Positions 46,110-55,402 are shown, counted from the stretch's first letter. The stretch is 64,000 bases of DNA from Anaerohalosphaeraceae bacterium (GCA_050309605.1 JBNRMN010000034.1:32001-96000); one strand, 5' to 3'. Notes: generated by a model not told the origin, from the sequence alone. Program-made: numbers and translations.

Positions 46110-46892
46110 TTAGTCGTCTGTTTGTCGCCGGGCGGCCAGAATCGCTGCGCCCAGGGCGCCGGTAAACTGTGGCGATTGACAGACCTTGACCGGTTGAGCC
46201 AGGACGGTTTCAAAGGCCTCGCGCATTCCCGAAATCAGCGCTGCGCCGCCGGTAAAATAGACGGGGCTTTGGATCAGGCCGCCGCCCATTGCCGCCAGTC
46301 GGCGTACGATGGCGTTTTGCACGCCGGCGATAATATTTTCGCGCGATTGGCCCTGGGCGAGCAGGCCGACGATCTCGGTCTCGGCAAAAACCACACAAAT
46401 GCTGCTGACGGCTGCGGGGGCATCGCTGCGGCGGGCGTAATCACCCAGCTCATCCAGCGGCACATCCAGCCGGTCGGCGACGACTTCCAGGAATCGCCCG
46501 GTCCCGGCGGCGCAGCGATCGTTCATCACAAAATCCCGCACCTTGCCCCGGCTGTCCAGTCGAATGAGTTTGCTGTCCTGTCCGCCGATGTCGATGACGG
46601 TGGCGACGTCCGGGTGCAGATGGGCGGCGCCGACGGCATGGCAGGTGATTTCGGTGATCGTCGTATCGCTTACATTCACGAGCCTGCGTCCGTAGCCGGT
46701 CGCGGCCACAGCGGCGACGCGACTGCGATTGATCTTTACCTCATTGAGGAGATCATAAAACAGGCGTCGAGCGCGACTCTGCTGATCGGCGCCCTGGTCG
46801 TCCAAGCGGCGGGCCAACACGGTTTGCTGTTGACTGTCCCACAGCACGGCCTTAAGCGTGCGCGAGCCGGCGTCAATGCCTGCGGTAATCAT
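46110..46892 (-). CDS. ATP-dependent [4Fe-4S] activase/reductase (HgdC/BcrAD/DCCP-R type, ASKHA ATPase)
   Basis: GIDAGSRTLK, ATGYGR, TEITCHA, IDIGGQDSK, MNDRCAAGTGRFLE, SSICVVFAETE, FTGG. Confidence 0.93.
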   Translation of the reverse strand: MITAGIDAGSRTLKAVLWDSQQQTVLARRLDDQGADQQSRARRLFYDLLNEVKINRSRVAAVAATGYGRRLVNVSDTTITEITCHAVGAAHLHPDVATVIDIGGQDSKLIRLDSRGKVRDFVMNDRCAAGTGRFLEVVADRLDVPLDELGDYARRSDAPAAVSSICVVFAETEIVGLLAQGQSRENIIAGVQNAIVRRLAAMGGGLIQSPVYFTGGAALISGMREAFETVLAQPVKVCQSPQFTGALGAAILAARRQTDD

Positions 46893-48280
46893 ATTGCTCT
46901 CCTGCTTTTTGCGGTTTCGATTAAGGCTTCCAATCGCGTTGTCAGCGATGATTCATACGGGTCAATCAGCGTGGGAATTTCGATATCCAGAACGGCAAGC
47001 GCGGTGTGGTTTCGAATGCAGTCGGCAATGAGTCTGCCTTCTGTGGCGCAGTGGCTGGCGCCGGGGATGCGGCTGAATACGACCGCCTCGGCGCCGACGG
47101 TATGAATGCTGCGCAGGATACCTCCTGCTCGTCGTTGAGCTGAGCCGGCCATCGGATCGGCCAGGGCGGCTGTGGCCAGGGCGACAAACGGGTCATCGGT
47201 TTCATCGATGGACATTAAAGCGTGCGGGAACATCAGCTCCGTGCCGCAGAGCCGTCCGCCGCACTGTTCCATCAGATTCATTGCATAGACATCTGCCGGC
47301 GGATTGACCCAGAAAACACGTACCGGTTCATTTGAAAGGACGCCGAGGTTGTTTTCGACGCGGCGGTTCACCTCGTTCAGCAGGCCGGTCAGGACGACCT
47401 CGGTCTCGTTCGGATCGGAACAAAAGTGAATCGCCAGCATCTCGGCCAGCATCATCTCCAGCGCCGGCAGGGGACATCGCGGTGCGGAGAACACCCTCAT
47501 TTTCAGGGTTCTCAAAAGCTTCCGGATGCGATTGGTTTGACGGATCGAAGTTCTGAGTTGTTGATGATCAAGCGGCCGGCCCGCAACCTCTGCGAGATAG
47601 TCGGCCACACGCATCAACTCACATCGCACATAATCGATTTGTTGTTCCGATGCCGTCAGGCCGTTGGGTCGAACACGGGCTGTTTGGCCGTTGTGCGGGT
47701 TGCGGTAATGGGGCATTTCCCACCAGAAGATTTCAAATCCGAGGCTTTCCAGCCGTGCCGCGGCGATGGAAAAATCGTCGCAGGTGGCCCCGACACTGCA
47801 CACGAGGGCGTCGGGAATCGGAAAATGCTGTCCGTTGACAAATGCCCCGACCATGGCGCGGACCGGACAAAACGCAGCGTCCAGTCCATATTGGTCGGCC
47901 AGCTCGAACAGGCCGTCTCGCTGCTGTTTGAAGCAGGGAATCCACCAGGCCGCGTCAGGATAAAACGCCGTCAGATTTTCAAAGGCGTATGCAATGACCG
48001 GTATCGTGCCGAGGTCTTTCATTGTGCCGATGATTTTGTTGCCCTGCCGGCGCCACAGCCGCAGGCGGTCTTCTTCGGTCAGTATCAAGTTCCACAAGGC
48101 CAGCGCCGCCGGCGCGTTGTCAAACCGCAGCCGGTCAAGCCGTTTGTCGCCGGCGTTAAAATGACGCTGCAGCGGCCCGCCGTAAAAGCGTTCTTTCAGG
48201 TCGGCCTCGCAAAGCTGTCGGTAGCGCTGCTGCCACTGGTCAAGCGTCAGTTGTGCAGGCGGTACGTTCATCGCTCCCAT
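46889..48280 (-). CDS. 2-hydroxyacyl-CoA dehydratase (HGD-D) family Fe-S protein, divergent
   Basis: AFCPVRAMVG, GATCDDFS, LRTSIRQTNRIRKLL, SHCATEG, LTTRLEALIE; overlaps both neighbours. Confidence 0.8.
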   Translation of the reverse strand: MGAMNVPPAQLTLDQWQQRYRQLCEADLKERFYGGPLQRHFNAGDKRLDRLRFDNAPAALALWNLILTEEDRLRLWRRQGNKIIGTMKDLGTIPVIAYAFENLTAFYPDAAWWIPCFKQQRDGLFELADQYGLDAAFCPVRAMVGAFVNGQHFPIPDALVCSVGATCDDFSIAAARLESLGFEIFWWEMPHYRNPHNGQTARVRPNGLTASEQQIDYVRCELMRVADYLAEVAGRPLDHQQLRTSIRQTNRIRKLLRTLKMRVFSAPRCPLPALEMMLAEMLAIHFCSDPNETEVVLTGLLNEVNRRVENNLGVLSNEPVRVFWVNPPADVYAMNLMEQCGGRLCGTELMFPHALMSIDETDDPFVALATAALADPMAGSAQRRAGGILRSIHTVGAEAVVFSRIPGASHCATEGRLIADCIRNHTALAVLDIEIPTLIDPYESSLTTRLEALIETAKSRRAI

Positions 48281-49119
48281 TGCTCCAAAAAAGCGTCCAG
48301 CCGCGACAGCGAAGCTGCTGACAGACGTGCGCAGGAATCGGTTTCAATGCAGATAAGCGGTACGGTAAGTCGCTTGCGCAGATCGAATATCGCCGCCTTC
48401 CAGTAATCACAGAACGGATGCCGGATGACCATCGCGCCAAGAACCCGACGGCGATGGATCGCCTCGCTGAGCCGGTCGAAAAACGGCTCAGCCGGACGCC
48501 GCCAGATCGCAGGCGTTGTCAGATAATGGTCGGCCAGCGCCGCAAGCGGAGGGCTGTTGCCCGCTGTCGGCTCGAAGGGCGTTCGCAGATTTTGCCATGC
48601 CGATTCGGTGCCGTTGAAAACAATCGGCAGACCGCGTGCGGCCGTAAGTTGAGTCAGATCGAAAAAATCGCACTCAAACAACGGCCCGCCGATCACGGCA
48701 AGCCCCTTGTCCTGCGATTCGACGGTTTGGGATGCTGAGTGATTCATTGGATCGGTCAGGAGGGCGGGATTAGTTCGACCGCCGTCCAGCTCGACCAGAC
48801 CGCGTTCCAGCCGTTCAAACTCGTCGCAAAGGATGGTGCGTGCCGTCGGGCTGCCGGTTTTGGGGATGTTCAGCAAAAACGCCGGTTTGTCCGATTGAAG
48901 GGTGTGTCTCTCATACATACGCCTCATCTGGTCGCAGCCGGTGGTAAAAACCGCCGCATCGACCTGTCGGACCGCAGCGGAAAAGGCGTTTGCCCACGCA
49001 CAAAGACCTTCGATCTCGTCGCGTCGTTCCGGCGTTGGTTCGGGACGACAGGGCGTGTGGCCGCAGGCGGTAATCAGCTCAATCGGAACAAACGGACAAC
49101 AATAACCGATTCTTGCCAT
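48268..49119 (-). CDS. 2-hydroxyacyl-CoA dehydratase family protein, shortened (about 283 aa)
   Basis: MARIGYCCPFVPIELITACG, GLCAWA, TTGCDQMRR, PFCDYW, IETD...SRLDAFLE; ATG at 49119, 4 nt after the upstream stop. Confidence 0.8.
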   Translation of the reverse strand: MARIGYCCPFVPIELITACGHTPCRPEPTPERRDEIEGLCAWANAFSAAVRQVDAAVFTTGCDQMRRMYERHTLQSDKPAFLLNIPKTGSPTARTILCDEFERLERGLVELDGGRTNPALLTDPMNHSASQTVESQDKGLAVIGGPLFECDFFDLTQLTAARGLPIVFNGTESAWQNLRTPFEPTAGNSPPLAALADHYLTTPAIWRRPAEPFFDRLSEAIHRRRVLGAMVIRHPFCDYWKAAIFDLRKRLTVPLICIETDSCARLSAASLSRLDAFLEQWER

Positions 49120-49123
49120 CGTA

Positions 49124-50269
49124 TCAGCCTGTCCTTTCGCGCAGCGTTTCGATGAGCGCTTCGATGCGCACCGACAGCCGGGGCGAATCCGACGGCGCAT
49201 AATCGGTCACGATTTTCAAATAGCCCAGACCTTTGCGCTCGGCCAGTTGACGCACATGATAGGATTCCACATCGTATGTCAGACAACCCTGCCAGACGAG
49301 ATCGATGATGCAGTCGGCGCTGTAGTCCTCGGTCAATTGATCGAGCAGCTCAAGCCGTCGCGTATTCGGCGTCATCACCGAGCAGGGCAGATGGAAATAC
49401 GTCTCGGCAATCGCCTCCAGCGGATCGATGGCCTGTTCCTCTACATCGTCAAGAACGGGTTTGATGCCGGTACAGTTTTCCATACACACCACCCGTGCAC
49501 CGGTGTGTTCGATTAAATCAACAATACGCTCGGCGCCGTGGACAGTCGGCACGCCGGTCAATAACACACGAATGCCGCTGTCGATGGTTGAACCGGCTGT
49601 GTCGGCAGATTCAAGCAATCGCTCATATTCATTCAAATCGTCCTCGATGCCGGAGATGATGCTTTTGAAGTCCAGCAGCCGTCGGCCTGTCCACGGCGGC
49701 CGGGGGCGTTTCATTTGCTCGGCCAGTTGCCGCCGCAATGCGCGTTCGCGATTCATTCGTTTGATGGCGCTGCGCAGCGCGTCGTCCGTGATACGGCACG
49801 ACAGACGGTCTTCGAGTACTGCTTTGAGTTTTCGCACCTCGGCCAGCCAATGCGTTCGGGCATTCGGGTCGTCGGCCTTTTGCGGCAGTTCAAGGATGTG
49901 CATCGGACGTTGCTGTGCCATTAGCTCGAACATTTTCTTCTTGCCGTCGCAGGTGGTCTCAGCCACGATCAAATCGGCCATAGCCAGAAAGGGGTTGCTG
50001 TCGGTGATGTGGTAGCCATAGGTGGATTTAATCAGGGGGCACAGGCCGGCGGGCAGGTCCTGTTCGGCCGGGGCAATTGTTTCCAGCGACCCGCCGCACA
50101 GACACACCGGCACACCGCCGGCGGCAAGAATCAGTTCGCGCGGTGTGTATTCGCACATAATCCCGACGATGGGACGACCCTGGGATTGGGCGGCTGTCGC
50201 AAAGGCGTAACAGTGTTGAATCATTTGATCGAAGCGGCATTGTATCTGCGGGTTTTGGTTCTGTGTCAT
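49124..50269 (-). CDS. Double-cubane-cluster-type / 2-hydroxyacyl-CoA dehydratase family anaerobic reductase
   Basis: GIMCEYTPRE, LCGG, LCPLIKSTYG, AETTCDGKKKMFE, ENCTG, LPCSVMTPN, GCLTYDVE, TDY....RIEALIE. Confidence 0.85.
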   Translation of the reverse strand: MTQNQNPQIQCRFDQMIQHCYAFATAAQSQGRPIVGIMCEYTPRELILAAGGVPVCLCGGSLETIAPAEQDLPAGLCPLIKSTYGYHITDSNPFLAMADLIVAETTCDGKKKMFELMAQQRPMHILELPQKADDPNARTHWLAEVRKLKAVLEDRLSCRITDDALRSAIKRMNRERALRRQLAEQMKRPRPPWTGRRLLDFKSIISGIEDDLNEYERLLESADTAGSTIDSGIRVLLTGVPTVHGAERIVDLIEHTGARVVCMENCTGIKPVLDDVEEQAIDPLEAIAETYFHLPCSVMTPNTRRLELLDQLTEDYSADCIIDLVWQGCLTYDVESYHVRQLAERKGLGYLKIVTDYAPSDSPRLSVRIEALIETLRERTG

Positions 50270-50308
50270 TTGAATGTTCCTCTGACGATCAGGGGCTCAA
50301 ATCGATTC

Positions 50309-51124
50309 TTATGCGGTTTTTACCGCGACGAACAAAGCCTGGATGATTTTGCCCTCGCGGGCCAGTTTTTCCATGGCGGCCATCTCTTTGCCGATGGTGT
50401 TGAGCAGGGTCTGGTCAAAGCCGATAATTTTCAGGGCGTCATACGTAAGCTGCGTACCGACCATTTTTTGATAGAGTTCCACATGGTCGGCAAAGCGGCC
50501 GGTGTCTTCCAGGTGCTTGACGGTGCAGCCGCTTTGTTCAAGCAGAGCGGCGTATCCGCTGCGGCTCTGAAGGTTGGGGAATTTCATAAACGCCAGTGTC
50601 CGCTGCAATTCCTCGGCGGTCATCGGCACATCGCCGAGCACCCAGTCGGTAAAGGCAATCGTACCGCCGGGGCGGACGATGCGGCAGGCCTCGGCAATCA
50701 TCGTGTCTTTGTCTTCCACATAGCACCAGGCGTCCTCGCCCCAGACGAAATCGGCGCTGGCAGCGGCAAGTCCGCTATTGCAGACATCGGCCAGGACAAA
50801 CTGAATCTTATCGTCAGAATGTTCTTCCTGGCAACGTTTTTTACCCAGTTCGACCATCGCTGCTGTGGCATCAACGCCGGTCATGGCGGCGACGCCGCAG
50901 AACCGCACGAGGAAGCGCATCCCTGCGCCGCTGCAGCAGCAGAAATCCACGCCTTTGGTACCGGGCTGAATTGCGGCCTTCTTGGCCAGATCCATCGACG
51001 AGGTCAATCCGCCGATATGAATCTGCTCGCCCATGAGCAATTCCCAGAGTTTGCCTTCGGGGCCGCTATAAACCGTTTGAACCGCTGCCAGCGGACTGTT
51101 TGATTGTTGTGCTGTTTGCTTCAT
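50309..51124 (-). CDS. Class I SAM-dependent methyltransferase with Cys-rich motif I
   Basis: GEQIHIGG, VDFCCCSGAG (motif I), TGVDAT, FVLADVC, DAWCYV, RIVRPGGTIAFTDW. Confidence 0.88.
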   Translation of the reverse strand: MKQTAQQSNSPLAAVQTVYSGPEGKLWELLMGEQIHIGGLTSSMDLAKKAAIQPGTKGVDFCCCSGAGMRFLVRFCGVAAMTGVDATAAMVELGKKRCQEEHSDDKIQFVLADVCNSGLAAASADFVWGEDAWCYVEDKDTMIAEACRIVRPGGTIAFTDWVLGDVPMTAEELQRTLAFMKFPNLQSRSGYAALLEQSGCTVKHLEDTGRFADHVELYQKMVGTQLTYDALKIIGFDQTLLNTIGKEMAAMEKLAREGKIIQALFVAVKTA

Positions 51125-51140
51125 TGTGTAATCCGTTGAT

Positions 51141-51174
51141 AAAAAAAGCGGGCCGAAACTGTTTTTCGACCCGC
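51141..51174 (-). terminator. Intrinsic terminator between the small selenoprotein ORF and the methyltransferase operon
   Basis: GCGGGTCGAAA-AACAG-TTTCGGCCCGC (11-bp stem, one G-U) followed by T7. Confidence 0.8.
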
Positions 51175-51203
51175 CGATACTTGCTCTGTTGTGTGAGGAC
51201 TGC

Positions 51204-51464
51204 TTATCGCGTCAACTCCTCAATCGAATACCATCGGTTTTCCTGGTGGACGGTAAACGGTCCGGAATCGATGTCGATTTCGATGCGGAACCGCCTGCGG
51301 AAGTCCTCTGGCACTCGCCACGAGTACCGGCAGGTGCTGCCTCACCCATACTCCATAGAGCCGGTGCGCAGGAAACCGCCGTCTTCAAGCCGAGCTGTTT
51401 CGAAGTTTGTATAGAAAAACGAATAGCCAGGAGATTGCGAATGTTTTTTTTCGATTCCCGTCAT
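51204..51464 (-). CDS. Putative small soluble selenoprotein (86 aa, Sec41, G-U-G-S-T-C)
   Basis: MTGIEKKHSQSPGYSFFYTNFETARLEDGGFLRTGSMEYG-U-GSTCRYSWRVPEDFRRRFRIEIDIDSGPFTVHQENRWYSIEELTR. Single in-frame TGA at 51344-51342; SECIS-like hairpin 13 nt downstream; divergent from selA. Confidence 0.75.
51310..51328 (-). promoter_or_regulatory. Putative bacterial SECIS element
   Basis: GGUACUCG-UGG-CGAGUGCC: 8-bp stem, UGG loop, starting 13 nt after UGA. Confidence 0.7.
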
Positions 51465-51539
51465 GACTCCGATTCCAATGTGTCCGTCAATTCTTTAAAG
51501 ACGTTTGCCGTACGACGGTGTTACGAAGATTTTTGTTAT

Positions 51540-51664
51540 TTTTTACCGTTTTAACAGAAAAAAAGCAAGCGGATTCAACGACATTTTTGTATTGTACAAA
51601 AAAAGCACAAAATGTCTTGAATTTAAGTGTCTTGGCTTGCTTTTTGGGCGGATCGGCGTACAAT
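51540..51664. promoter_or_regulatory. Divergent promoter region (selenoprotein operon / selAB)
   Basis: Plus: TTGCTT(51637)-16nt-TACAAT(51659). Minus: TTGCTT(51568)-17nt-TAAAAA. Nested inverted repeats lie between them. Confidence 0.55.
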
Positions 51665-51710
51665 AACATCGCAGGCAGGGACTGATTGATCGGACTACGA
51701 AAGGCGGCTT

Positions 51711-53111
51711 ATGGAAGCACAGATTCAGGCGCAGCTTCGGCAGATTCCTTCGGTGGATGCGGTGTTATCGCAGATTCAGGCACATCCGGCGGCCCGGCGT
51801 GTGGGTGCGGCGATGCGGACGCAACTGGTGCGCGAGGTGATTGAGACAATCCGCCGGCAGGTGCGGGACGGGACATTTTCAGCCGATGCCGATATGGCCG
51901 GGGCGGTGCGGGACCGGATCGAGCGGCGACTGGAAGCGGTGGCGGGGGTGTTTTATCGACGGGTGGTCAATGCGGCCGGGATCATTCTGCACACCGGACT
52001 GGGACGGGCGCCGCTGGCGGGTGAGGTCCTGGAGCAGATCAGCTGGCAGTTGGGCGGGTATTCGCTGTTGCAGGTGGATGTCGAGGCGGGCAAGCGGTCC
52101 TCGCGAGATGGACGGATTGAAGACTTGCTCAAACTGCTGACCGGCGCCGAAGCGGCGACCGTGGTGAATAATAACGCCGCGGCCACGGCGCTGGTGCTGA
52201 ACACCATTGCCGCAGGCAAAGAGGTCATCGTGTCGCGCGGACAGCTCGTCGAGATCGGCGGGGCGTTTCGCCTGCCGGACGTGATGGCCTTTAGCGGGGC
52301 CAGGCTGGTCGAGGTGGGTACCACCAACAAGACGCACCTGCGGGATTATGAGAATGCGATTACCGAAAACACCGCCGCGATTTTGCGGGTGCATCCGAGC
52401 AATTATAAGATTACGGGTTTTACGAGCGAAGTGCCGCTGGAGGAGATGGTCAAGCTGGCCCACGCCAACGGCCTTTTGCTGTTTGATGATGTCGGGGCCG
52501 GGTCGCTGATTGATTTTTCGCGATTTGGATTTGAAAAAGAGCCGACGTTGATGGAATCGGTCGCCGCCGGGGCCGATGTGATTACCTCCAGCGGCGACAA
52601 ACTCATCGGGGCCTCTCAGGCGGGGATCGTCCTTGGCCGTGCCGAAATCATCCAGAAGGTGCGCAAAAATCAATTTGCGCGGATCGTGCGGGTCGATAAG
52701 TTTACGCTGGCGGCGTTGGAGGCGACGCTGAAATTGTTTCTGGATGAGGCGGCGGTGTTGGAAAAGGTGCCCGCCTTGCGGCTGATGCTGCGTTCGGCGG
52801 AGGAGATTCAGCGGCAGGCCGAGCGCATCTGCGAACGGGTGCAGAGGGCCTGCCCTGATGCGTGCGTCTCACTGCTGCCGGGCCAGTCGCAAATCGGAAG
52901 CGGCTCACTGCCCGGACAAAACCTGCCGACGACCCTGGTGGCAATTGCGTCGCCGCATCAATCCGCTGCGGCACTGGCCGACACGCTGCGGGGCGCTGCG
53001 ACGCCGGTCTTTACGCGCATCGGCGATGATCGTGTGCTGATTGACCCGCGCACGCTGCTGGACGGCGATGAGGCGATTTTGATTGAGACGCTGGTTGAAA
53101 TTCTGCATTAA
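51711..53111 (+). CDS. selA: L-seryl-tRNA(Sec) selenium transferase
   Basis: RVVNAAGIILHTGLGRAPL, VVNNNAAA, SRGQLVEIGGAFRLPDVM, EVGTTNKTH, HPSNY, SGDKLIG (PLP Lys), GSGSLP. Confidence 0.97.
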   Translation: MEAQIQAQLRQIPSVDAVLSQIQAHPAARRVGAAMRTQLVREVIETIRRQVRDGTFSADADMAGAVRDRIERRLEAVAGVFYRRVVNAAGIILHTGLGRAPLAGEVLEQISWQLGGYSLLQVDVEAGKRSSRDGRIEDLLKLLTGAEAATVVNNNAAATALVLNTIAAGKEVIVSRGQLVEIGGAFRLPDVMAFSGARLVEVGTTNKTHLRDYENAITENTAAILRVHPSNYKITGFTSEVPLEEMVKLAHANGLLLFDDVGAGSLIDFSRFGFEKEPTLMESVAAGADVITSSGDKLIGASQAGIVLGRAEIIQKVRKNQFARIVRVDKFTLAALEATLKLFLDEAAVLEKVPALRLMLRSAEEIQRQAERICERVQRACPDACVSLLPGQSQIGSGSLPGQNLPTTLVAIASPHQSAAALADTLRGAATPVFTRIGDDRVLIDPRTLLDGDEAILIETLVEILH

Positions 53112-53144
53112 AACAAACCATGAAGATCGTTTCAAGACATTATG

Positions 53145-53179
53145 CTCCGAACTAAGAACTACGAACTAAAAACTCCGAA
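53145..53179 (+). repeat. Five degenerate tandem heptamers in the selA-selB spacer
   Basis: CTCCGAA CTAAGAA CTACGAA CTAAAAA CTCCGAA. Confidence 0.6.
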
Positions 53180-53181
53180 TT

Positions 53182-55089
53182 ATGACCCAAATCAACATCA
53201 CTCTCGGCACCGCCGGGCATATTGACCACGGCAAGACGGCGTTGATCCGCTTGCTGACCGGCTGTGAGACCGACCGGCTCAAGGTCGAAAAACAGCGTGG
53301 CATGAGCATTGAGCTGGGCTTTGCCCCGTGTCTGCTGGGGGATAGGGAGGTGGGGATCGTCGATGTCCCCGGACACGAACATTTCATCAAGACGATGGTC
53401 GCCGGCGCCGCGGGCATTGACGGAGTGCTGTTTGTCGTGGCCGCCGATGACGGGATTATGCCTCAGACGCGCGAGCATCTGGAGATTTTGACCCTGCTGG
53501 GCGTGCGGCACGGCCTGACCGTCCTGACCAAGATCGATCGTGTTTCGGAGGAGCGCGTCGAGGCAGCGATCGATGAACTCCGAACGTTTTTGTGCGGCAC
53601 GTTTTTGCATGATGCCCCGATTTGCCCGATGTCCAGCATCACCGGGCAGGGATTCGACGGATTCTATACGGCGTTGAAAGATGTGGTCGCTTCCATATGC
53701 CCCAAAAGCATTGACGGGGTGTTTCGTCTGCCGGTGGAACGGGCGTTTTCGGTCAAGGGCTTCGGCACAGTGCTCAGCGGCATCCCCGCCGCCGGTTCGG
53801 CACAGATCGGCCAGGAAGTCGTCCTGCTGCCGAGCGGACAAACCGGACGCATCAAGGCGATACAGGTTTACGGCAAGCCGTCCGAATACGTGCGAAGCGG
53901 CCAGTGTGCGGCGCTGAATATCCCGCAGATGGATTATCGTACTATCCGACGGGGCGACGTGTTGACGGTAGAGGGGTATTTTTCTCCGACGCAGTGGTTT
54001 TTGTGTGCCGCCGCGGTGCTGCCCGGTCAGTCGCTGCCTGTTAAAAACGGTGCTGAGATGAGGTTCCACACCGGCACGGCGGATGTTGCGGCCAATGTTT
54101 ATCGTGTTGAGCGAGACGAGTACTTTGCCGACGGCGACTTCCTGCTTCAGATTCGTGCGCATACGCCGCTTGTGGCCGCCCCCGGCGACCGGTTTATCCT
54201 GCGGTCGCTGTCGCCGATGCGTACCGTCGGCGGGGGGCGCATCCTTCAGGCGATGTCATCGCGTCTTCGGTATGCTCACGGGCGGGGGCCGGCCTATGCC
54301 AAAGCACTGGCCGAGGCGCAGCGGAATGAAACGGCATTTGTCGCTTTTGCGGTGGAATCGGCGGCGTCCGGCGTCGCACGGCTTGATGATCTCACGTCGT
54401 TTACCAAGCAGAAGCCTGAGCGGGTGCGGCGGCTGCTGGCGGATTTGCTGCAGACACAAACCGTTGTCGCTTTGTCCGGCGATGTGTATATCCACGCCCG
54501 AAAACTGTCGGTGATGTGCCGGCACATCACCGAAACGCTTGAGCAGTTTCACGCCGACCATCCCGAACGGCCGGGCATGGATGCGGAAGCTTTAGCCGAG
54601 CGGCTTGAACTGGGCAAAGGCGTTTTTGATGCCCTGCTGGAAGTTGCCCTGAAACAAGGGACGGTCGTGCGGCGTCTGGATCGGCTGGCACTGCCGTCGC
54701 ACACCGAAACCTGCAATCCGGCTCTGGCAAAACGGCTCCGGCAAATCGAAACAGCGTTCCTGAAAAACCTGTTTGCTCCTCCCGGCCTCAATGAACTGAC
54801 GGCCGAGTCCGGCCTGACCCCATCACAAATCCGGGAGGCCATTACGATTTTGATCGAACAGAAAAAACTATTTTATGTGGACCGAACGATGGTATTCCAC
54901 GCCGAGGCCGTAAAGCAGGCCAAACGCCGTATTGCCGAGCATATTCAGGGCCAAGGGCGGGGCCGTCTGGAAAGCGTCGCATTCAAATACTTGATTGATA
55001 CGACCCGAAAATACGCCATTCCGCTGCTGGATTATATGGACAAAATCGGCTTTACCCGTCGGGTCGGCAATACACGTTACTTGAAATAA
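53182..55089 (+). CDS. selB: Selenocysteine-specific elongation factor
   Basis: GTAGHIDHGKT, DRLKVEKQRGMSIELGF, DVPGHEHF, TKID, VERAFSVKGFGTV, C-terminal SECIS-binding winged helix TTRKYAIPLLDYMD...TRRVGNTR. Confidence 0.97.
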   Translation: MTQINITLGTAGHIDHGKTALIRLLTGCETDRLKVEKQRGMSIELGFAPCLLGDREVGIVDVPGHEHFIKTMVAGAAGIDGVLFVVAADDGIMPQTREHLEILTLLGVRHGLTVLTKIDRVSEERVEAAIDELRTFLCGTFLHDAPICPMSSITGQGFDGFYTALKDVVASICPKSIDGVFRLPVERAFSVKGFGTVLSGIPAAGSAQIGQEVVLLPSGQTGRIKAIQVYGKPSEYVRSGQCAALNIPQMDYRTIRRGDVLTVEGYFSPTQWFLCAAAVLPGQSLPVKNGAEMRFHTGTADVAANVYRVERDEYFADGDFLLQIRAHTPLVAAPGDRFILRSLSPMRTVGGGRILQAMSSRLRYAHGRGPAYAKALAEAQRNETAFVAFAVESAASGVARLDDLTSFTKQKPERVRRLLADLLQTQTVVALSGDVYIHARKLSVMCRHITETLEQFHADHPERPGMDAEALAERLELGKGVFDALLEVALKQGTVVRRLDRLALPSHTETCNPALAKRLRQIETAFLKNLFAPPGLNELTAESGLTPSQIREAITILIEQKKLFYVDRTMVFHAEAVKQAKRRIAEHIQGQGRGRLESVAFKYLIDTTRKYAIPLLDYMDKIGFTRRVGNTRYLK

Positions 55090-55141
55090 GTCTGCTTGAA
55101 TCCATCGGCAAAAAAGGATATATTGGTCAAGAGAGGTGTTT

Positions 55142-55402
55142 ATGCGATACGGTGCAATTTCTGCCAAACTGTTGGCGCTGGGGGTGGGCAGTTTCGTCGT
55201 GCTGGTGGTTCTTCAGCCGGGGTGAGGCAATCCCTTTGGAGTGCTTGGAGCACTCCTGATGATGGTTAGTATGCCGCTGGCGCTGGTCTTCGGCGTTATC
55301 GGCGTGTTTCTGGACAAACCCCGCTGGCCGGCGATCATTGCCGCGCTGATTGCATTGCTCTTGCTGTTGCCGGTCGTGATGAACCTGGCCGGCTGGTGCT
55401 AA
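55142..55402 (+). CDS. Putative small 3-TM membrane selenoprotein (86 aa, Sec28, C-terminal Cys86)
   Basis: GAGG RBS 5 nt before ATG. MRYGAISAKLLALGVGSFVVLVVLQPG-U-GNPFGVLGALLMMVSMPLALVFGVIGVFLDKPRWPAIIAALIALLLLLPVVMNLAGWC. TGA at 55223-55225; SECIS-like hairpin 12 nt downstream; directly after selB. Confidence 0.78.
55238..55256 (+). promoter_or_regulatory. Putative bacterial SECIS element
   Basis: GGAGUGCU-UGG-AGCACUCC: perfect 8-bp stem, UGG loop, starting 12 nt after UGA. Confidence 0.72.

Follow-up and report, generated by a model that had tools for sequence, protein, structure and literature searches.

Genes and features of the locus

A stretch of 64,000 nt from an Anaerohalosphaeraceae bacterium (positions 32001-96000 of JBNRMN010000034.1, GCA_050309605.1; hereafter the window) carries at 46110-55402 the selenocysteine (Sec) genes selA and selB, flanked on each side by a small open reading frame (ORF) with an in-frame TGA, together with an operon for a methyltransferase, three proteins of the 2-hydroxyacyl-CoA dehydratase/double-cubane type and an ATP-dependent activase. 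The left 86-codon ORF is named sL and the right one sR; MT is the methyltransferase, DCCP the double-cubane cluster protein, and H2 and H3 are divergent HGD-family proteins. Gene calls were based on ORF lists under table 11 and with TGA read-through, on translations and on family scans, which confirmed all nine genes where an earlier interpretation made from the DNA alone (the sequence-only reading) had placed them (Table 1). The close packing noted for the last four operon genes was also found: 4 nt separate the DCCP stop from the H2 ATG, and the H2/H3 and H3/activase junctions are ATGA overlaps, while the gap from the MT stop to the DCCP start is 39 nt. The genome does possess selD and selC, the two Sec genes missing from the window; both are located together on another contig (C64), and this selD is the only one in the genome above the curated cut-off.

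Table 1. Coordinates of the features of the locus and of the two selenium genes on contig C64
Feature	Positions	Strand	Remarks
Activase, HgdC/DCCP-R-type, ATP-dependent, 260 aa	46110-46892	-	TIGR00241 251.4 bits (cut-off 125.4); PF01869
H3, HGD-family, 463 aa	46889-48280	-	PF06050, E 1e-31; likelier start ATG 48271 (~460 aa)
H2, short HGD-family, 283 aa from ATG 49119	48268-49119	-	PF06050, E 2e-25
DCCP, 381 aa	49124-50269	-	NF040772 406.5 bits (cut-off 350)
MT, Cys-rich class I S-adenosylmethionine (SAM) methyltransferase, 271 aa	50309-51124	-	PF08241/PF13649
Terminator-like hairpin between sL and MT	51147-51175	-	12 pairs, 7 G-C, T7 tail
sL, predicted selenoprotein ORF, 86 codons	51204-51464	-	TGA 51342-51344, context G-U-G, U41
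sL predicted Sec insertion sequence (SECIS) hairpin, GGUACUCG-UGG-CGAGUGCC	51310-51328	-	Starts 13 nt after UGA
selA, 466 aa	51711-53111	+	TIGR00474 550.9 bits (cut-off 267.9)
selB, 635 aa	53182-55089	+	TIGR00475 323.5 bits (cut-off 242); SelB winged-helix domains
sR, predicted membrane selenoprotein ORF, 86 codons	55142-55402	+	TGA 55223-55225, context G-U-G, U28
sR predicted SECIS hairpin, GGAGUGCU-UGG-AGCACUCC	55238-55256	+	Starts 12 nt after UGA
selD (contig C64)	L065:8084-9778		374.7 bits
tRNA-Sec, selC (contig C64)	L065:9854-9946		74.4 bits; after selD

Evidence for two selenoprotein genes

The proposal that the two small UGA-containing ORFs flanking selAB are selenoprotein genes is borne out by TGA-bearing homologues and by compensatory changes in the hairpins behind the TGA. 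A six-frame search of 61 related genomes gave sL-like matches in 18, with TGA in frame in every match listed. The window copy carries the motif GSMEYGUGSTCRYSWRVP, and scanning the window together with 90 other loci for the motif gave 87 TGA-bearing ORFs with Y-G-U-[GS]-G-x-C-x-Y-S-W-R-V-P. Over 79 distinct sequences, the 8-bp sL hairpin had 95.9% of its cells paired and three of the eight pairs changed on both sides; these statistics were reached by none of 500 shuffles, and slid controls paired at 25-59%. The hairpin arms and the UGG loop are at the same time the codons for R-Y-S, W and R-V-P, and therefore the Ser is always encoded by TCG.

Homologues of sR with TGA were present in 13 of the 61 genomes, with the TGA at the same place in all 16 distinct sequences. 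Their hairpin was paired in 96.1% of cells and seven of its eight pairs were changed on both sides, a covariation score attained by 0 of 500 shuffles. The four TGA-free sR matches were weak (E 6e-4 to 5e-3) and fell in long unrelated frames. Since the post-TGA stretches of the window's sL and sR are unremarkable when folded alone (z-scores of -0.49 and -1.91, respectively), the case rests on these comparative counts, by which sL and sR are predicted to be real selenoprotein genes with SECIS elements.

Both TGAs of the window are located between two Gly codons, GGN-TGA-GGC. The two families have in common this GGN-UGA-GGC context, a hairpin that begins 12-13 nt past the UGA, and an apical loop reading UGG. 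Such a shared arrangement may reflect a lineage-specific rule of Sec insertion, not a requirement of the proteins.

A conserved island in related genomes

The surroundings of the operon were compared by tblastn of the window proteins over ten neighbourhoods of relatives and by a pattern scan for H3 in one genome per species. The scan confirmed 393 relatives, and the best 80 of these 393 loci were analysed; the counts take only loci with enough flank, those for selA/selB and sL requiring the full 10 kb upstream. In families f1, f2 and f5 of the order to which the bacterium belongs, the array MT-DCCP-H2-H3-activase adjoins selA/selB and sL. Among the analysed loci H2 was present in 73 of 73, the activase in 74 of 75, DCCP in 61 of 64 and MT in 56 of 60. 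Upstream, selA or selB, divergent from the operon, was found in 27 of 37 loci and sL, in zero to four copies, in 30 of 37. According to the sequence-only reading, the proposal would fall if homologous operons consistently lacked the small ORFs and the selAB linkage, or if the genome lacked selC/selD; these last two counts and the selD-selC pair on contig C64 show the opposite.

The selenium link is closest at the other end of the operon. On the same strand and directly 3' of the activase stands selD, in 55 of 68 loci and in seven of eight relatives' loci, the sister species included; a tRNA-Sec gene follows selD in six of the eight such loci tried. The usual island, most of which lies in the window, is thus sR <- selB <- selA / sL(0-4) -> MT-DCCP-H2-H3-activase-selD-tRNA-Sec, and its five enzyme genes are a conserved unit ending with selD and selC in most relatives. 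Because the long SelD and selC follow the activase in relatives, the genome studied here has been rearranged, with selD-selC moved to contig C64. The suggestion that the locus is a conserved, uncharacterised system tied to selenium has therefore gained from the relatives, in which selD-selC are the last genes of the operon.

Outside the order, 16 loci from other Planctomycetota were inspected. The five genes recur in other orders, with sel genes inside five of the 16 loci; one of these (L156) reads MT-D-H2-H3-Act-SelD-SelA-SelB. In family f5, sL lies between selA and selB and not between selA and MT (L059:4084-4773, L060:8940-9629).

Enzymes of the operon

DCCP matched the solved DCCP structures (7YYL/6ENO) with E 1e-54 and is the only NF040772 member in the genome. 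Each of its residues C39, C58, C77, C107, C266, C296 and C329 aligns with a Cys of 7YYL_C and is retained in 58-60 of 60 homologues; the spacing is slightly off the published motif, with X18 instead of X19 and X158 instead of X166-170. These seven residues we take to be the ligands of an [8Fe-9S] cluster, following the motif and not the coordinates.

H3 and H2 remain below the NF040772 cut-off of 350, with 48.7 and 43 bits, respectively. H3 has seven conserved Cys: C116, C138, C161, C167 and C287 in 80 of 80 homologues, C411 in 79 and C345 in 77. Their spacing is unlike that of DCCP, and only the C-terminal half of H3 matches the solved DCCP (E 1e-14). In H2, C89 and C264 are kept in 71 of 71 homologues and C67 in 70 of 71 (numbering of the 310-aa ORF), three Cys being the number that we take as typical of a dehydratase subunit. 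The only solved structure matched by H2 was BzdN, with E 0.006. Cys 127 and 166 of the activase presumably correspond to the cluster ligands of HgdC, the numbering of which they match.

MT stays below every curated cut-off: its best NCBIfam models are the DVU_1556 family (58.5 bits against 155) and the ArsM families (about 40 bits), and its nearest solved relatives are small-molecule methyltransferases of the PEAMT/SDMT type (E 1e-10). Its motif I loop reads D-F-C-C-C-S-G-A-G, with C62-C63-C64 in place of GxG, these residues being present in 59, 58 and 59 of 59 homologues; C98, C115, C134 and C200 are conserved in 53-58 of the 59. No earlier description of a CCC triplet replacing the Gly-rich SAM loop was seen. 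In the SelD of this clade, 564 aa long, a Cys-rich segment extends the N-terminus, the linker contains a CCC triplet, and the C-terminal part is an AhpD-like domain with CxxC.

No in-frame Sec codon was present in the operon enzymes of the aligned loci. A TGA reported for H3 in one genome (G046) lies just before the start codon and hence is not a Sec codon. The sequence-only reading had noted that CoA-transferase and acyl-CoA dehydrogenase genes are absent from the immediate neighbourhood, and family scans likewise revealed none, either in the flanks of the window or among the conserved genes.

The sL family and the copy in the window

Full-length sL members comprise 180-530 aa; they begin with a hydrophobic anchor or a signal, and the Sec module occupies roughly the final 75 residues. 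G-U, the Cys four positions on, and the S, R and P that follow are invariant in the alignment. The family is predicted to be a large, unannotated and mostly extracytoplasmic selenoprotein family with the motif FEYGUGGTCRYSWRVP. A profile search over 1.84 billion representatives gave 2067 sL-family cluster representatives with E <= 0.001, 740 of them with E <= 1e-10. Among the best 150, 127 cease to match one residue before Sec, and the database protein ends there in all but two. The other 23 run past the Sec site with Gly in four, Cys in three (P0014, P0065, P0102) and other residues in the rest. The Gly in the public gene calls P0008, P0010, P0013 and P0093 (e.g. FQYGGGGTCRYSWRVP) is evidently due to TGA being read as Gly, an alternative code, in automatic annotation. 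A word-indexed database search for sL retrieved only truncated "hypothetical proteins" of 169-173 aa. Neither sL nor sR reached the cut-off of any Pfam or NCBIfam (release 20) model. The closest candidate considered for sL, OS_HP2 (NF041425), was rejected, with 13.3 bits against a cut-off of 100 and only three of 54 members matching (best E 0.035).

When the last 162 residues of a full-length member were modelled with AlphaFold, the result was all-beta and of high confidence (pLDDT 94.6). Foldseek with this model gave nothing at E <= 0.001, and the best VIA-align Z of 8.3 was tied among many Ig/FN3/MG-like sandwiches. The modelled domain would thus be a generic Ig/MG-like beta-sandwich and not a thioredoxin fold, and the fold itself offers no functional lead. 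As analogues, carrier arms with GGCGG like those of SoxY and the DsbD domain of Ig fold were considered, but neither gained support from any search. One relative, P0103 (815 aa), combines an N-terminal Ser/Thr kinase and a membrane helix with an external part that has an sL-like domain without Sec at its end, an architecture hinting at a possible role of the sL fold in sensing or in ligand binding.

On contig C2 this genome has two further paralogues of sL, both larger (L064:6808-9696 and L064:12322-13602); the in-frame TGA and the hairpin recur in each of them. The product of one, 962 aa long, contains a LamG domain and is anchored at its C-terminus; in that of the other, a signal peptide and the sL domain precede a multi-helix membrane domain without a family match.

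The gene product is shorter in this genus. The sL of the window has 86 codons and the copy of the sister species 96, both without the anchor and the first beta-sandwich strands, and the window's sL is best seen as an N-terminally truncated family member whose N-terminal half appears to have been lost in the genus. Whether such a protein is still functional is a separate question. A truncated sL could be nonfunctional, either a decaying remnant or a Sec-dependent leader through which selenium supply tunes read-through into the MT operon. Apart from the missing anchor and strands, this is favoured by the comparison with the sister species, in which the core has a ratio of nonsynonymous to synonymous substitution rates (dN/dS) of 0.59 at a low dS of 0.185 and the 30 codons upstream are not alignable. 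It is further favoured by near-identical strains of other studies, the differences of which fall mostly at first and second codon positions, and by a terminator-like hairpin ending 22 nt upstream of the MT start. Degenerate remnants of 54-60 codons with TGA and a partial motif occur in two other loci (L060:6194-6358, L068:5860-6042), which suggests that sL copies do decay in place. Yet the TGA, SECIS and C-terminal consensus are retained in two species and several strains. For the leader variant there is the additional difficulty that full-length sL genes of other genera have the same terminator, and that the hairpin begins 29 nt past the sL stop, beyond disturbance by a ribosome standing there. 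Loss of function thus seems rather unlikely, albeit a serious alternative, and the chance that the window's sL remains a working protein is about even.

The same hairpin bears on the place of sL in transcription. The sequence-only reading had the left ORF head a tightly coupled operon. This did not hold, since the 79-nt gap between sL and MT contains the terminator-like hairpin, which separates the two genes. A similar hairpin with a T-run, with compensatory variants, was seen in all ten related loci in which sL ends less than 400 nt before MT. It lay 22-53 nt upstream of the MT start in 12 of 57 loci, those with sL directly upstream. Because the full-length sL genes elsewhere carry it too, the hairpin is read simply as the probable end of the sL gene. 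In a near-identical strain, window positions 51071-51166, comprising the MT start and part of the terminator, are replaced by 1058 other letters (runs X3, X6). Strain identity is ~99.8% towards the operon and ~98.3% towards the sel genes, a difference that suggests a recombination boundary in this stretch. A survey of sequencing runs listed none with RNA of the locus, the one run labelled transcriptomic (X17) being probably DNA.

The sR family

Members of the sR family have 84-104 aa, a basic N-terminus (MRFGKIA) and three hydrophobic stretches. The Sec motif Q/R-P-G-U-G-N/S/D-P (QPGUGNP in the window) follows the first hydrophobic stretch and a D-K/R-x-K loop the second, and most members end with a Cys no more than four residues from the C-terminus. 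The window's sR is accordingly predicted to be an intact three-helix membrane selenoprotein, with both the Sec and the terminal Cys facing outward if the positive-inside rule holds. The gene was found within ~150 nt after selB in eight distinct loci, as a tandem pair in two, and elsewhere in three genomes.

Distribution across genomes

Among the 61 genomes of the order, 16 have selA, 14 have H3 and 13 have both. H3 is thus present in 13 of 16 selA-positive genomes versus 1 of 45 selA-negative ones, the latter being only 76% complete, and sL is found in all 14 H3-positive genomes. Two near-complete genomes of the same genus have neither selA nor H3, sL or sR. One selA-positive relative (G025) lacks the operon although selAB, sL and sR are all present. 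Among 401 sampled genomes of Planctomycetota, sL occurred in 30, and TGA-free versions were found in two (G130, G255), both without a selA match. Across this sample 10 of 20 operon genomes have no sL and 20 of 30 sL genomes have no operon: in the phylum, the association of the selenoproteins with the operon is only loose. The phylum-wide profile of H3 versus selA is uninformative, because 294 of the 401 genomes have selA.

As for other uses of selenium in this genome, no molybdopterin enzyme was found, and the five peroxiredoxin matches have no TGA. A crude whole-genome SECIS scan returned 397 candidates, mostly noise in GC-rich DNA, of which four were credible: sL, sR and the two paralogues on contig C2. 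Since the scan requires perfect stems of >=7 pairs, it cannot show that other selenoproteins are absent. It may nevertheless be that sL and sR are the main selenoproteins here and the main reason why the lineage keeps the Sec trait.

Proposed function of the operon and alternative explanations

The interpretation we prefer, tentatively and at slightly less than an even chance, is that the operon performs an ATP-driven, low-potential reduction of selenium species to selenide for SelD. On the precedent of its family, the activase would spend ATP to push electrons of very low potential into DCCP and the H2/H3 pair. These proteins would in turn reduce a poorly available selenium species, such as elemental or polysulfide-bound selenium or an organoselenium compound, to selenide. 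SelD would then convert the selenide to selenophosphate for Sec synthesis. The Cys-rich MT might act on thiol-held selenium, either methylating surplus selenide as a safety valve or activating an intermediate. Since selD closes the operon, the simplest candidate for the product is selenide, formed from a kind of selenium that is beyond the reach of ordinary reductants.

The two selenoproteins would be products of the island and not partners of the reductase, because G025 has both without the operon and because the two are so loosely co-distributed in the phylum. The suggestion that they are carriers, substrates or redox partners for the reductive chemistry therefore found no support, with both proteins apparently outward-facing, to judge from their sequences. 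An outward-facing, Gly-flanked Sec would instead act together with a nearby Cys, that of U-x-x-x-C in sL and the C-terminal one in sR, and the pair would serve redox exchange or bind a soft metal(loid).

Several points weigh against selenide supply as the role of the operon. Known DCCP substrates are small unsaturated molecules and not selenium, and it is not obvious what a SAM methyltransferase would contribute to the formation of selenide. The argument also leans on a strongly negative Se(0)/HSe- potential, general background for which literature support was not found. Three selA-positive relatives have no operon (G014, 90% complete; G019, 96%; G025, 99%), so that it is dispensable for Sec use. 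In the phylum sample selA accompanies H3 in 19 of 20 genomes, but with selA so frequent overall this is a weak enrichment. Of the 16 loci from other Planctomycetota, 11 show no sel gene in the flank examined. Moreover, the related genomes are not independent of one another, and some of the 80 loci duplicate ones fetched separately.

The direction of the selenium flow could also be the reverse. If the Fe-S clusters of the reductase needed selenium from selenophosphate, as in a Se-bridged double cubane, the operon would consume selenium and its real substrate would be another refractory molecule. The gene most tightly joined to the operon is indeed selD. The operon enzymes of the aligned loci have no in-frame TGA, so any selenium in them would be of the non-Sec kind. 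By analogy, selD would be placed here as it is beside selenium-dependent molybdenum hydroxylases. A Se-bridged cluster is also listed as a formal possibility in the accessible part of a preprint on the correlation of DCCP with SelD (Haft and Gwadz, bioRxiv 10.1101/2022.07.06.499078). However, the same island contains selA, selB and tRNA-Sec, which serve solely for Sec insertion, and selD, being the only one of the genome over the cut-off, thus also serves Sec synthesis. In addition, no YqeB/YqeC-type genes were noticed in the flanks, where no family-level search was made for them. Taken together, these points make a selenium-consuming reductase unlikely.

Alternatively, the island could handle a soft metal(loid) such as arsenic, tellurium or mercury, bound outside by sL and sR through Sec/Cys, and reduced and methylated inside by the reductase and the ArsM-like MT; the sel genes would then be present only because sL and sR need Sec. 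ArsM is among the nearest named families of MT (E ~1e-10), MT has seven conserved Cys, and the pairing of Sec with Cys in both selenoproteins would suit a metal(loid) ligand. The presence of sL in every H3-positive genome of the order agrees with this idea, and the SAO (selenocysteine-assisted organometallic) precedent, as far as its accessible description goes, ties selenoproteins and DCCP to organometallic chemistry. Yet the ArsM models score far below cut-off (39 bits against 263), genes for transport or resistance are absent from the conserved set, sL and the operon separate across the phylum, and selD as the last operon gene is hard to explain. A metal(loid) role of the island is accordingly quite doubtful.

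Very improbable is an ordinary fermentative dehydratase or reductase unrelated to selenium and standing beside sel genes by descent in one lineage: all three Fe-S proteins do belong to PF06050, the 2-hydroxyacyl-CoA dehydratase family, and 11 of the 16 loci outside the order have no sel gene nearby, but the conserved set has no CoA-transferase or acyl-CoA dehydrogenase gene, the dehydratase equivalog models are far below cut-off (HadC, 51.6 bits against 700), the sel linkage recurs in different gene orders, and the presence of the operon tracks selA within the order.

Selenide supply for SelD can be extended to the whole island, a broader scheme that we regard as speculative and unlikely in its entirety. 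The selenide-supplying enzyme of the Sec operon and an outward selenol relay of sL and sR, capturing selenium, another chalcogen or a metalloid, would together constitute a self-sufficient and transferable module of selenium economy. In such a module a nitrogenase-like, ATP-driven reductase would provide the missing route from insoluble or organic selenium to selenide, and the Sec machinery would be kept mainly for the module's own capture proteins.

Significance

Two open questions meet at this locus, the physiological role of double-cubane proteins and the source of selenide for SelD in strict anaerobes. With DCCP, its Fe-S partners, the activase and MT joined to selD-selC, with selAB adjacent, in dozens of species, both can be put to one concrete assay, in which ATP, a reductant and selenium species go in and selenide or selenophosphate comes out. 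The selenoproteomes of Planctomycetota and other anaerobes are evidently undercounted, since 127 of the 150 best sL representatives stop at the UGA and four read it as Gly, and their annotation can be corrected.

Comparison with known systems

No published description of the locus was found in the literature on planctomycete selenoproteins and double-cubane proteins. In the available text of a 2026 review of the prokaryotic selenoproteome (PMC13188914), no family has the motifs of sL or sR, and the accessible part of the preprint (bioRxiv 10.1101/2022.07.06.499078) describes neither this operon nor these selenoproteins. What appears to be new is a DCCP/activase system within a selenocysteine operon and two selenoprotein families, with the proviso that supplementary tables of surveys might list sL under another name. 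Like the bacterial selenoproteins catalogued in the available text of the review (PMC13188914), sL and sR have an in-frame UGA followed by a hairpin with a G-rich apical loop, and sL also has homologues of the Cys type and database entries truncated at the UGA. Unlike those of that catalogue and of NCBIfam, they reach no Pfam or NCBIfam model.

With the 2-hydroxyacyl-CoA dehydratases and their kin (HgdAB/HgdC, HadBC/HadI, BzdNO) the operon shares PF06050 and the principle of an ATP-driven activase that feeds an electron into Fe-S subunits, and the translational coupling of H2 and H3 recalls an alpha/beta pair. The Cys patterns differ, however, as do the model scores and the gene neighbours described above. 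ArsM binds arsenic through thiols, and MT resembles it in its class I fold and in having several conserved Cys. It differs in the CCC that replaces the Gly-rich loop and in its scores (NF008823, 39.3 bits against 263; NF041537, 40.3 against 510).

A close counterpart of the reductase is DCCP/DCCP-R of Carboxydothermus hydrogenoformans (6ENO, 7YYL), likewise a DCCP, here of 381 aa, with an HgdC-type ATPase, encoded in the present case in the same operon. Here these are always joined by H2 and H3, with three and seven conserved Cys, by a Cys-rich MT and, in relatives, by selD-selC.

As for the SAO systems, SaoL (NF040728) had no match in the genome, yet control genomes equally gave none, and the nine SAO families had no match among the proteins scanned. 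The accessible text of the preprint (Haft and Gwadz, bioRxiv 10.1101/2022.07.06.499078) reports that 955 of 970 strong NF040772 proteins are found in SelD-containing assemblies and treats the physiological substrate of DCCP as an open question. It also states what the sequence-only reading had offered as background, that DCCP often stands beside SAO loci, and adds its co-occurrence with SelD. The likeness to SAO, so far as that text describes it, lies in overlooked selenoproteins, in DCCP, activase and selenium genes brought together in anaerobes, and in Sec placed in motifs likely to bind a metal or a substrate. The link between DCCP and SelD is statistical in that part of the preprint, whereas here it is physical, with DCCP in one operon with selD-selC and beside selAB.

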